A stretch of 63,245 nucleotides of DNA, filler included, from Craspedostauros australis (lineage: Eukaryota), in assembly GCA_030167865.1 (NCBI GenBank). It is 17 parts of 17 records of this genome, joined end to end, with 100 filler letters (N's around TTAATTAATTAA, not from the genome) between each part and the next. Parts side by side here need not be neighbours in the genome. Positions count along the whole stretch, not along the records: positions 45,593 to 47,288 come from JALAGF010003766.1; 16 more parts are not named here. One strand, given 5' to 3'. Position 1 is the stretch's first letter; every line of letters starts with the position of its first letter. A model generated the notes under the pieces. That model did not search any database. It saw only the letters and a list, made by a program, of their open reading frames with translations, and was not told the DNA's origin. This document shows positions 45,493-47,288 of the stretch, piece by piece. A program made the translations under genes and the position numbers.

Positions 45493-45613
45493 NNNNNNNN
45501 NNNNNNNNNNNNNNNNNNNNNNNNNNNNNNNNNNNNTTAATTAATTAANNNNNNNNNNNNNNNNNNNNNNNNNNNNNNNNNNNNNNNNNNNNACATCTAA
45601 GGGCATCACAGAC

Positions 45614-45822
45614 CTAAGGTATCGAGAGAAGGTCATTTATTATAACATTGGGTAGGATGAGGTGTGGAAGGGGAAAGGAGAGAAGCGTGAGATGAGAGAC
45701 TGGGCTCGTAAAGTCGATCATGCCAGCAATGGAATGCAAGGCATCCGAGTGATGGTGTACTATTGTGTACTGTAATTCAGAATCATGCATTCAGAATCAT
45801 GCATTCATGCATTCATGCTTAC
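45614..45822 (-). other. Spliceosomal-type intron in 18S rRNA (209 nt)
   Basis: TAACAG|GTAAGC...ATGACCTTCTCTCGATACCTTAG|GTCTGT. Confidence 0.93.
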
Positions 45823-45963
45823 CTGTTATTGCCCCTATCTTCCTGCATCTAATAGAATGCACGTCCCTCTAAGAAGTGTCACCCAATGAAGATTCATTCG
45901 GCACACTATTTAGCAGGCAGGGGTCTCGTTCGTTAACGGAATAAACCAGACAAATCACTTCAC

Positions 45964-46290
45964 CTGTTGTTCGTCGGAGGGGGGAGTGGAGTTTAGCATA
46001 CAGAGATTGTAGAGGGATAAAAGAAGGAGAGAGTTAGATCAGATGATTGTTTACTTCCATCGTGTCCTGACATCAAGAGATGTGCTAGACAAAAGGTCTC
46101 TCTGATCGTAAACTGAGCAACAAGAAGTTGCNNNNNNNNNNNNNNNNNNNNNNNNNNNNNNNNNNNNNNNNNNNNNNNNNNNNNNNNNNNNNNNNNNNNN
46201 NNNNNNNNNNNTTATGAGCAGAGCGGTAATATGATAATATTACCATATCGATTTCATATTGATTTCGAATAATGATGTGTATATACATAC
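45964..46290 (-). other. Spliceosomal-type intron in 18S rRNA (about 327 nt including an 80-N gap)
   Basis: TAGTTG|GTATGT...GCTAAACTCCACTCCCC...AACAACAG|GTGAAG. Confidence 0.9.
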
Positions 46291-46311
46291 CAACTAAGAA
46301 CGGCCATGCAC

Positions 46312-46534
46312 CTGTTGTGATAGTAGAGGATTAGGGGGTTCATGAGTTCGTATGGAATAGAATGGAATGAAAGATGGGGAGGAAGGAGCGAATGGGTGAG
46401 TTCATGGTTTCATTTCGAAAGAGATTCGCATCATTCCGAGCTGGAGATTGGGGGGGGGGTGCTCAACTATTCACTGTTCAGTGTCTAGTGTCTAGTGCCC
46501 AGTGCCCAGTGCCTAGTGTTCACTATTTACTTAC
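46312..46534 (-). other. Spliceosomal-type intron in 18S rRNA (223 nt)
   Basis: TTGGTG|GTAAGT...CCCTAATCCTCTACTATCACAACAG|GTGCAT, with a CTAAT branch-site match. Confidence 0.93.
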
Positions 46535-46592
46535 CACCAACCATAGAATCAAGAAAGAGCTCTCAATCTGTCAATCCTCACTATGTCTGGAC

Positions 46593-46787
46593 CTGAGGAG
46601 AGTTTTGTAAAAGTACGAAATGGATGTGTCGTGTCGGAGGAGGAGGGGGAGTTTGAAGGGTAATACAAGTGTCAGAATATGGTTCAAGGTCATGGATTGT
46701 TATTTCACCAACATGGAGGGTAAAGAGAACAAGCTGGCTGTATGCAGCTGCTGCAATGAATGTAATGTAAATGTAAATGTAACGTAC
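46593..46787 (-). other. Spliceosomal-type intron in 18S rRNA (195 nt)
   Basis: TTCCAG|GTACGT...ACTCTCCTCAG|GTCCAG. Confidence 0.92.
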
Positions 46788-46801
46788 CTGGAAAGTTTTC
46801 C

Positions 46802-46958
46802 CTGTTGGTGTAAGGAGAAGTTGAGTCGGAGGGAAGTTGTGGAAGAAATTAAGTGTGAGTGATACGCCATCGATCGTTTTGTCTCATAAATCAGAGTGTT
46901 TGTTTGTTCCTTCTTTAATTTCTAAAAAATAAAGATAATGTAGTGGAATCAAACTTAC
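46802..46958 (-). other. Spliceosomal-type intron in 18S rRNA (157 nt)
   Basis: AACACG|GTAAGT...CTCAACTTCTCCTTACACCAACAG|GGAAAA. Confidence 0.92.
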
Positions 46959-46992
46959 CGTGTTGAGTCAAATTAAGCCGCAAGCTCCACTC

Positions 46993-47194
46993 CTGTAAGA
47001 TGAAAGAGGAGGATGTGATGGGTCGATGAGCCAGTCAATGTAATGTGATGTAATGTAATGTAATGTCGTGGATAGGAAGAGAAAGGATTTTGTGAGATGA
47101 TGTGGTCGTCATGAATTTCATGGCGTGTCAGTATCAATCTCGAATACTGGTCGTCGTTGGCGTAGAAGCAGTTAAAGATGATGATGAAACGTAC
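46993..47194 (-). other. Spliceosomal-type intron in 18S rRNA (202 nt)
   Basis: CACCAG|GTACGT...TCCTCCTCTTTCATCTTACAG|GAGTGG. Confidence 0.93.
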
Positions 47195-47240
47195 CTGGTG
47201 GTGCCCTTCCGTCAATTTCTTTAAGTTTCAGCCTTGCGAC

Positions 47241-47288
47241 CTGTAATTGTAATCGTAGTAAATGGAGAGCCAAGAAGGAGGGAAAGAG
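47241..47288 (-). other. 3' end of a seventh 18S rRNA intron (truncated by the contig end)
   Basis: A pyrimidine tract ending ...TTACAATTACAG|GTCGCAAGG replaces the expected upstream GGGAGTATG. Confidence 0.85.

Follow-up and report, generated by a model that had tools for sequence, protein, structure and literature searches.

The minus strand of positions 45593-47288 of the window (the whole stretch of 63,245 nucleotides that was analysed) is a 1.7-kb contig that contains 335 nt of a eukaryotic 18S rRNA gene in seven exons (46, 34, 14, 58, 21, 141 and 21 nt, in order). These exons are split by six complete GT-AG introns, and the 3' end of a seventh intron precedes them. The locus is a fragment of a nuclear 18S rRNA gene with at least seven spliceosomal-type introns, whose features are as follows.

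47241..47288, minus strand: intron 1, 3' part, 48 nt, cut by the contig end; pyrimidine-rich, ends TTACAG; E. coli 894|895
47195..47240, minus strand: 18S exon 1, 46 nt; 97.9% identity to an intron-less reference
46993..47194, minus strand: intron 2, 202 nt; CAG|GTACGT...TTACAG|GA; ACATT microsatellite; E. coli 939|940
46959..46992, minus strand: 18S exon 2, 34 nt; placed by alignment to an intron-less reference
46802..46958, minus strand: intron 3, 157 nt; ACG|GTAAGT...CAACAG|GG; E. coli 973|974
46788..46801, minus strand: 18S exon 3, a 14-nt micro-exon; placed by the same alignment
46593..46787, minus strand: intron 4, 195 nt; CAG|GTACGT...CCTCAG|GT; ACATT-type microsatellite directly after the 5' splice site; E. 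coli 987|988
46535..46592, minus strand: 18S exon 4, 58 nt; placed by the same alignment
46312..46534, minus strand: intron 5, 223 nt; GTG|GTAAGT...CAACAG|GT; 7-nt tandem repeat; E. coli 1050|1051
46291..46311, minus strand: 18S exon 5, 21 nt; placed by the same alignment
45964..46290, minus strand: intron 6, 327 positions including an 80-N gap at 46132-46211 (nominal length); TTG|GTATGT...CAACAG|GT; E. coli 1071|1072
45823..45963, minus strand: 18S exon 6, 141 nt; contains a V7-type variable segment; Rfam match
45614..45822, minus strand: intron 7, 209 nt; CAG|GTAAGC...CCTTAG|GT; 14-nt tandem repeat; E. coli 1197|1198
45593..45613, minus strand: 18S exon 7, 21 nt, truncated where the contig stops; placed by the same alignment

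The 141-nt exon matches the Rfam model SSU_rRNA_eukarya (79.1 bits, E = 1.9e-21, model positions 1296-1453 of 1831). This match was obtained on an N-free stretch and did not appear with the whole window or with 45400-47400, both of which include N. Further short rRNA pieces (e.g., 28S) may therefore lie elsewhere in the window. All seven exon pieces align to an intron-less 18S reference, and removal of the inserts leaves an uninterrupted, colinear 18S sequence. No 18S-like sequence was found elsewhere in the window by BLAST against 67 fetched loci, which contain little 28S, and the reference of the first-pass annotation to all rRNA introns is read here as all those within this 335-nt fragment. 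The exons differ from 21 distinct intron-less references at 6 of the 228 columns that are invariant in the latter. One of these deviations, AAAGAAATT, is common to the window and the diatom-like locus L068. Unusual exon substitutions include T for A at spliced position 90, and one substitution in the Rfam alignment changes a G-U pair to A-U, which keeps the pairing. In none of 17 sequencing runs did more than 6% of the sampled words occur. Conserved exon words would by themselves give this share, and the intron-bearing stretch is thus absent from the listed runs; the comparison is silent on expression. The contig breaks off within conserved 18S sequence, which would be expected if several rDNA variants met at that point.

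The host is probably a raphid diatom that belongs to Craspedostauros or is very closely related to it. A 654-aa open reading frame on another contig of the window has 95% identity overall to a transcriptome protein labelled Craspedostaur... and is nearly identical to it over most of its length, and the next-best named matches of the window proteins are from diatoms. A protein atlas was uninformative as to taxonomy. A long-read assembly has been reported for this diatom (preprint 10.1101/2023.03.06.531300). Assignment of the host assumes that the rDNA contig shares the genome of its neighbours in the window, an assumption which is supported by the matching style of the introns described below.

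The inserts had been taken to be spliceosomal in type, and as far as sequence can indicate this holds. The six complete 5' ends all begin with GT (GTACGT and GTAAGT twice each, GTATGT and GTAAGC once each), and all seven 3' ends are AG (six CAG and one TAG), behind a tail rich in pyrimidines and poor in G. The introns are poor in G on the sense strand (8-15%). A branch-point motif of the YTRAC type is clear by eye only in intron 2, where it lies about 45 nt from the 3' end. Introns in a ZIP transporter gene on the next contig provide a comparison with mRNA introns of the same assembly. Two introns in this gene, 178 and 302 nt in length, are supported by homology, begin with GTACGT and GTACGC and contain 11% and 17% G, and the 18S introns thus appear to match the style of this genome's mRNA introns. 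No Pfam family matched the upstream ZIP exon, and the GPHR gene has no intron, its only departure from the transcript-derived protein being a frame change. Two broader scans for mRNA introns were dropped: one based on continuity of open reading frames was far too noisy (92 candidates), and one based on depletion of G was unspecific (69 segments). Group I introns, ribozymes that fold by themselves and span several hundred nucleotides, follow U and end in G. An identity of this kind was considered for the inserts and rejected, as neither the group I family RF00028 nor any other Rfam intron or RNA family matched them at E values up to 10 (45593-46131 and 46212-47288), and the same library detects RF00028 in three of the environmental rDNA loci (L022, L034 and L066).

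All of the introns were said in the first-pass annotation to sit at G|G junctions, and the exon borders that it listed (CAG|GA, ACG|GG, CAG|GT, GTG|GT, TTG|GT and CAG|GT), together with a partial intron ending TTACAG before GT, are identical to those found here. G|G is found at six of six complete introns but accounts for just 26 of the 334 junction positions (7.8%) in the spliced 335 nt, which gives P = 2.2e-7. The more specific G|GT occurs at eight of the 334 positions, four of them occupied (P = 4.7e-6), or at five of nine when the partial intron is counted, and three of the four CAG|G sites in the spliced sequence carry an intron. For the partial intron the G at +1 is seen directly; the -1 base falls outside the contig and is probably also G, as it is in L068. 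In the intron-less references the -1 base is G at all six sites (21 of 21). At +1, five sites have G in all 21 references and the remaining one has it in 20 of 21, and the three bases that flank each of the six sites on either side vary little or not at all. Because the flanking G's are invariant in rRNA genes that lack the introns, they pre-date the introns, and the G|G flanks are both non-random and pre-existing, as had been proposed. The absence of an intron from the variable segment of the 141-nt exon, which was also pointed out, is correct but statistically meaningless, as a stretch of 50 nt would lack one with P = 0.38.

It had further been noted that the introns lack similarity to one another and have no terminal inverted repeats. 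When eight intron pieces were compared pairwise, each in both orientations, introns 2 and 4 were the only pair to score above shuffled sequences (z = 6), a similarity that is due to their shared ACATT microsatellite. With the exception of this microsatellite the observation stands, as no terminal inverted repeats were found. Copies of the introns were found neither in the remaining 61 kb of window sequence (best E = 0.098) nor in the 67 fetched loci, and no donor intron was found in the 61 kb searched. The repeats at the junctions are 2-5 nt, within the length of the splice consensus. Introner elements are transposon-derived intron families known from Micromonas, Aureococcus, some fungi and other organisms. 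They can create many new spliceosomal introns rapidly in algal genomes, and in this respect they resemble what is found here. Introners, however, form near-identical families with defined termini and target duplications, whereas the seven introns here are mutually unrelated, lack terminal inverted repeats and have no copies in the window. The earlier judgement against a burst of introners or transposons is therefore borne out for the 61 kb searched, and the introns appear to be of independent origin.

Spliceosomal introns in diatom 18S rRNA genes have already been published, a precedent that the first-pass annotation missed, and Craspedostauros is a new and denser example. The 18S rDNA of the Chaetocerotaceae has 17 spliceosomal intron sites, with up to 11 introns per species, and the family also has spliceosomal introns in its 28S rDNA (Gaonkar et al. 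2018, PMC6306197). The locus described here shares with them a diatom host and a nuclear 18S rDNA that carries several short GT...AG inserts, but the Chaetocerotaceae are centric diatoms and the present host is a raphid pennate. Four of the seven sites appear to equal Chaetocerotaceae locations 11, 13, 15 and 16, an equivalence that rests on spacing rather than on the published alignment: introns 2, 4, 6 and 7 are spaced by 48, 79 and 141 nt, compared with 48, 79 and 140 nt for Chaetoceros sites 1147, 1195, 1274 and 1414. The absolute anchor agrees within 4 nt (1143|1144 in L068 versus the published 1147|1148). The other three sites (approximately 1101, 1181 and 1253 in Chaetocerotaceae numbering) are absent from Table 1 of that study, and the seven introns compare with four or five in the same stretch of the richest Chaetocerotaceae taxa it reports. 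The Chaetocerotaceae consensus, GTDHNN...YNHAG, is fitted by six of six 5' ends and four of seven 3' ends. The five complete ungapped introns are longer overall, at 157-223 nt, and two of the five (157 and 195 nt) fall within the 96-199 nt given as typical for the family. The YTRAC branch point reported for Chaetoceros is not evident by eye in most of the introns here. When located by position arithmetic through L068, with an offset uncertain by several nucleotides, the putative flanks of the more 5' Chaetoceros sites 981, 989 and 1011 look unlike splice sites. Among raphid pennate diatoms, introns are also reported in the rDNA of Olifantiella sp., where their presence or absence is heterogeneous (Han et al. 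2018, J Phycol, cited in PMC6306197).

Two of the same sites are occupied in environmental rDNAs. GT-AG introns occur at 1071|1072 in 6 of 66 environmental loci, which represent five distinct rDNAs (L059, L055, L022/L046, L034 and L066), one of them diatom-like and the other four fungus-like candidates with group I introns or long inserts that are not GT-AG. A GT-AG intron at 939|940 is also present in L068, which has none at sites 3 and 4. Introns that occupy the same site in different organisms are dissimilar (z from -1.5 to 1.2, six pairs). The suggestion of convergent hotspots is thus supported at some sites, 1071|1072 (used in diatom-like and fungus-like rDNAs) and 939|940 (used in a diatom-like contig). 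Group I introns share the preference for conserved rRNA sites, and the RF00028 matches in L022 and L066 sit 4 nt downstream of window site 2; the inserts in the window differ from them in having GT-AG ends and no match to RF00028. In L055 and L022, long non-GT-AG inserts are also located 2 nt further downstream than sites 4 and 7. In ascomycetes, mostly lichen fungi, mRNA-type introns likewise occur in conserved regions of genes transcribed by Pol I and have non-random, G-rich flanks (PMC11889510, PMC8527467). These introns are proposed to be recent, and a reverse-splicing model has been discussed for rDNA introns (Bhattacharya et al. 2000; Cubero et al. 2000; PMC11889510, PMC8527467). Ascomycetes belong to another eukaryotic supergroup, and their rDNA introns are usually about 50-65 nt, like those of L055, L022 and L034. 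Whereas the flanks reported in ascomycete rDNA follow an AG-intron-G rule (Bhattacharya et al. 2000, as quoted in PMC11889510), A is found at exon position -2 in only three of six cases here (CAG in each), the others being ACG, GTG and TTG.

Taken with moderate confidence, the best explanation is that the locus is a raphid-diatom 18S rRNA gene with at least seven independent U2-type introns at splice-like sites, which likely entered by reverse splicing. Introns would be found only where the invariant rRNA already resembles a splice junction on its exon side, with G|G and in most cases CAG|G or G|GT. Because rRNA exons are unable to adapt to the spliceosome, an intron would be removable, and hence tolerated, only at such sites. 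Good sites, being few, would act as hotspots and become filled, and other diatoms and fungus-like rDNAs would use them in parallel. Entry most plausibly began with the reverse splicing of excised mRNA-type introns into rRNA at splice-like sites, after which reverse transcription and recombination would place the intron in one rDNA unit and concerted evolution would spread it through the array. The introns are probably spliced from the transcript of a functional copy. In yeast, a lichen spliceosomal intron is excised correctly when every rDNA copy has been made to carry it (PMC8527467), which indicates that splicing from a Pol I transcript is feasible.

The G|G flanks would be equally expected under reverse splicing or under any route of entry followed by a filter for splicing competence, because rRNA exons cannot adapt afterwards. 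It is possible, though unlikely, that the introns entered at the level of DNA and were then filtered, as filler captured in the repair of staggered breaks at (A)GGT or as old transposon-type introners that have since decayed, with no reverse splicing involved. GT forms the first two exon bases after the intron at five of seven sites, the repetition of CAGGT, AGGT or GGT at pairs of junctions resembles a short target duplication at AGGT, microsatellites abound in this genome's introns, as they might in filler DNA, and G|G alone does not separate the two routes. These repeats, however, are no longer than the splice consensus, and no inverted termini, intron family or further copies in the window point to mobile DNA. 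All six 5' ends also have a good extended splice site, which suits introns that existed before insertion, though such sites could have evolved later. A point against the preferred explanation is that a G at +1 is absent from two of two verified mRNA introns of the Craspedostauros genome and is present in only two of seven non-ascertained rDNA introns of environmental loci. It is therefore no general requirement of spliceosomal introns, and its occurrence at seven of seven sites here is stronger than a simple filter predicts.

Alternatively, the introns at the four positions shared with the Chaetocerotaceae could have been inherited from an early diatom and lost in most lineages. The shared positions make up four of the seven sites here and four of the five published Chaetoceros sites in this stretch, an overlap with P = 0.024 given the ten internal CAG|G or G|GT sites that are eligible. 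We nevertheless consider such inheritance improbable. The dissimilarity of same-site introns argues against it, with the qualification that old introns would be saturated anyway. Of the seven clades of Chaetocerotaceae only two have the introns, which differ between conspecific strains and can be polymorphic even within an individual (PMC6306197). The intron content of L068, which shares site 2 but neither site 3 nor site 4, also speaks against inheritance, and the use of site 1071 by four fungus-like rDNAs indicates that parallel use of a site occurs.

A comparably doubtful possibility is that the contig derives from a non-functional copy, an rDNA pseudogene or orphon, perhaps read by Pol II, that gathered introns while the working array remained intron-less. 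Such a copy would fit the shortness of the contig (1.7 kb), its internal gap, its ends within conserved sequence and the few unusual exon substitutions, such as that at spliced position 90. Yet only the six deviations are found among the invariant columns, at least one of them is the diatom-lineage state, the introns share nothing with the references, and the change from G-U to A-U leaves the pair unbroken. Without selection for splicing it is difficult to account for seven GT-AG insertions placed so exactly at splice-like sites, and the diatom cases in the literature were obtained by PCR of the main rDNA (PMC6306197). Misassembly of short reads, joining rRNA pieces to unrelated DNA, is highly improbable: the assembly is fragmentary (17 contigs in the window, an N gap in intron 6), but each of the seven inserts has a border precisely at GT or AG, a colinear 18S is recovered once they are taken out, and the same architecture at the same sites is found in independent environmental contigs.

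The preferred reading, entry by reverse splicing at splice-like sites, can be taken further, to the proposal that strong proto-splice sites in the core of this diatom's 18S, with seven introns in 335 nt, are near saturation and that rRNA is being colonised site by site by spliceosome-catalysed reverse splicing under a readable target rule. We put this forward as a speculative and rather unlikely extension. If it is true and the density extends throughout the 18S and 28S, no known rRNA gene would have introns at a higher density, and the diatom would offer a natural system for studying the rules of intron gain and the action of the spliceosome on Pol I transcripts. The 18S fragment by itself does not settle how spliceosomal introns are gained. 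Because rRNA exons are frozen by ribosome function, the flanks of rDNA introns record the target site as it was at arrival, a record that protein-coding genes rarely keep. The fragment represents a second major diatom lineage that re-uses sites of centric diatoms, and this lends support to the idea of convergent hotspots at a few splice-like positions in rRNA. An 18S gene crowded with introns also disrupts standard primer sites and lengthens barcoding amplicons, a point already made for Chaetoceros.

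The contig at 45593-47288 carries a stretch of eukaryotic 18S rRNA with seven interruptions and an internal gap of 80 N at 46132-46211. Its longest exon matches Rfam SSU_rRNA_eukarya at model positions 1296-1453 of 1831 (79.1 bits, E 1.9e-21). This match was obtained on an N-free stretch, and searches that included N runs, such as 45400-47400, gave none, so negative Rfam results on the linker-joined window are unreliable. An 18S reference without introns, from a metagenome locus, is colinear with all seven exon pieces, and no further 18S-like sequence was found in the rest of the window. 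Introns are numbered 5' to 3' along the 18S, the first being partial. The features are as follows.

Features of the 18S fragment and of the ZIP zinc-transporter gene on the neighbouring contig
45593-47288, minus strand: 18S rRNA fragment
Exons 1-7, minus strand: 46, 34, 14, 58, 21, 141 and 21 nt (335 nt spliced)
Introns 1-7, minus strand: 48 (3' remnant), 202, 157, 195, 223, 327 (gap included) and 209 nt
44273-44450, plus strand: ZIP-transporter mRNA intron, 178 nt, donor GTACGT, 11% G, homology-supported
44890-45191, plus strand: ZIP-transporter mRNA intron, 302 nt, donor GTACGC, 17% G, homology-supported

The third exon, at 46788-46801, is a 14-nt rRNA micro-exon flanked by introns of 157 and 195 nt.

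By their sequence, the introns are of the spliceosomal type. The six complete ones begin with good splice sites (GTAAGT and GTACGT twice each, GTATGT and GTAAGC once each), and all seven end in AG preceded by a pyrimidine-rich, G-poor tail (8-15% G). The 3' ends read CAACAG in three introns and TTACAG in two. The textbook donor consensus is CAG|GTAAGT, with which the six rDNA donors agree at 6 to 8 of 9 positions; both introns with a perfect GTAAGT fall among the three whose exon ends are not CAG. Searches of the introns against Rfam families, including group I introns and snoRNAs, gave no match at E up to 10. The two ZIP mRNA introns look the same as the rDNA introns. The longer of them holds a 10-nt tandem repeat, TGTACCAATG, in 5.9 copies at 45084-45142, and microsatellites are present in four of the rDNA introns.

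The first-pass annotation had listed the junctions as CAG|GA, ACG|GG, CAG|GT, GTG|GT, TTG|GT and CAG|GT, with the partial intron before GT, and this list is exact. The base upstream of the partial intron is absent from the contig; it is G in a diatom-like environmental 18S gene (L068), as had been expected. G|G occurs at 26 of the 334 junction positions in the spliced 335 nt, and all six introns that can be scored lie at such a position (P = 2.2e-7). The G|G observation is thus confirmed and is statistically strong for the 335 nt of 18S covered. Of the CAG|G sites in the same stretch, introns fill three out of four, and of the G|GT sites four out of eight. Among 21 distinct intron-less references, all have the G at -1 at every site; the G at +1 is likewise present in all of them at five sites, and in 20 at the remaining one. 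This indicates that the flanking bases are ancestral and were not altered later to suit the introns. The variable segment indeed has no intron, as had been remarked, but this carries no statistical weight (P = 0.38).

The introns had also been described as lacking obvious similarity to one another and terminal inverted repeats. No such repeats are present, and the introns are in general unrelated, except that introns 2 and 4 share an ACATT microsatellite (z = 6). Copies of the introns were sought in the rest of the window and in 67 environmental loci fetched for comparison, and none was found. With unrelated introns, no inverted repeats and no copies, the reading that there was no recent burst holds.

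Spliceosomal introns in rRNA genes are already known from diatoms and fungi. The centric diatoms of the family Chaetocerotaceae have 17 reported locations in their 18S, with up to 11 introns in one species (Gaonkar et al. 2018, PMC6306197), and that article cites Han et al. 2018 on the raphid diatom Olifantiella. Chaetocerotaceae positions 1147, 1195, 1274 and 1414 are spaced by 48, 79 and 140 nt (PMC6306197), and introns 2, 4, 6 and 7 of the window by 48, 79 and 141 nt, the variable segment lying within the last interval. Absolute numbering was anchored through L068 and is good to within 4 nt. Introns 1, 3 and 5 (about 1101, 1181 and 1253) are absent from the Chaetocerotaceae table of that article. 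This overlap, as judged by spacing, has P = 1e-3 if both lineages choose among all G|G sites and P = 0.024 if only the ten best sites are open to them. As far as its available text goes, the literature searched on Craspedostauros introns and on spliceosomal introns of diatom rRNA genes held no rDNA-intron report for the genus. The 18S fragment is a new and unusually dense raphid-diatom case which includes an rRNA micro-exon.

Fungal rDNA hotspots had been suggested as a parallel, and two of the sites are used in other rDNAs. A metagenome scan with a pattern of exon 5 plus a degenerate donor site returned 66 loci, of which 60 match through their own exon sequence without an intron at E. coli position 1071|1072. 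The other six have a GT-AG intron there (L059, L055, L034, L066 and the near-identical pair L022/L046). In the diatom-like L059 it is 703 nt long (L059:53-755) and occupies the site of intron 6; a second intron of 98 nt (L059:1098-1195) lies at 1392|1393 between G and T, which shows that diatom-like rDNA introns are not always at G|G. The remaining five loci, four distinct rDNAs if the pair is taken as one, are fungus-like and putatively fungal. Alongside very short spliceosomal-type introns (51-65 nt) they hold group I introns or else long inserts without GT-AG ends, and among them Rfam group I (RF00028) scored above threshold in L022, L034 and L066 only. The sites of introns 2, 4 and 7 have such group I introns or inserts 4, 2 and 2 nt downstream, so that spliceosomal and group I hotspots are close neighbours. 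Prokaryote genome contigs, scanned for the junction at the site of intron 2, gave one locus, L068, with a 121-nt GT-AG intron exactly at 939|940. Its 3-kb contig holds a eukaryotic, diatom-like 18S gene (L068:877-2192, Rfam 1047 bits) and is catalogued under a bacterial MAG, 'uncultured Cardiobacteriales', evidently through bin contamination. Seven other spliceosomal-type introns in these loci lie outside the scan patterns; with borders set by eye under the GT-AG rule, they have G at -1 in 6/7, G at +1 in 2/7 and G|G in 1/7. Both verified mRNA introns of the genome, those of the ZIP gene, have G at -1 and neither has G at +1. By this comparison, G is generally found at -1; having it at +1 in 7/7 is peculiar to the 18S fragment of the window.

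Most likely, a few splice-like sites act as hotspots, which would explain why the flanks are ancestral, why CAG|G is nearly saturated and why the sites overlap with those of Chaetoceros. Ribosome function fixes the rRNA exon sequence, and the spliceosome can recognise an intron only where the exon side of a junction is already present in invariant sequence. The stretch has ten internal CAG|G or G|GT sites, and so small a number of suitable sites would produce hotspots that are gradually filled and re-used in parallel. The unrelated sequences and good extended donors fit pre-existing introns arriving one by one, and entry might have been by reverse splicing into rRNA, followed by reverse transcription and recombination. 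This proposed route is the leading candidate for their arrival. Bhattacharya et al. 2000 proposed that ascomycete rDNA introns have non-random AG-intron-G flanks and arose recently (as related in PMC11889510), and a lichen spliceosomal intron is reported to be correctly spliced by yeast from Pol I rRNA transcripts, at a cost to growth (PMC8527467). Alternatively, insertion could have taken place at the DNA level and then passed through the same splice-context filter, with identical flanks as the expected outcome. An origin in an early diatom, with the introns inherited since, is less likely; introns that share a site in different organisms had no sequence in common when compared. Misassembly or a non-functional copy would be less likely accounts of colinear exons separated by introns with good splice sites. 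The first-pass interpretation is partly supported, in that the lack of a burst, the proto-splice context and, for some sites, the hotspots are upheld, and reverse splicing as the mechanism stays hypothetical.

If the rDNA contig comes from the same genome as its neighbours, the host can be taken as Craspedostauros, a raphid diatom, or as a very close relative, judging from a protein match and a shared exon variant. On another contig, a 654-aa Golgi-pH-regulator ORF shares 95% identity overall with a transcriptome protein that bears the label Craspedostaur..., and for the greater part of its length it is near-identical to that protein; its next matches reach at most 43% identity, the named ones being diatoms. 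The exon variant AAAGAAATT is common to the window and L068. The transcriptome-derived protein matches the Golgi-pH-regulator gene as two pieces that overlap and lie in different frames (21870-22289 and 22216-23670), which suggests a one-base frame change between assembly and transcript, from an assembly error or an allele, rather than an intron.

The 17 short contigs of the window are joined by N44-TTAATTAATTAA-N44 linkers. Several are mutually 98-100% identical across 1-4.5 kb, some as reverse-complement end overlaps; 27515-32042 and 32143-36667 are 98.4% identical, and 47389-49426 and 49527-51561 98.2%. The pattern resembles that of a heterozygous diploid with uncollapsed alleles or bubbles in the assembly graph. 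Two near-identical ORFs, 1369 and 1368 aa long and free of introns, lie on the first of these contig pairs (27593-31702 and 32221-36327, minus strand); in each, Pfam finds an AAA_16 ATPase domain (E 3e-19 and 8e-20). ORFs at 47934-48878 and 52153-53454 have a Beta_propel domain (PF09826), a mostly prokaryotic family, and one of them contains PT repeats.
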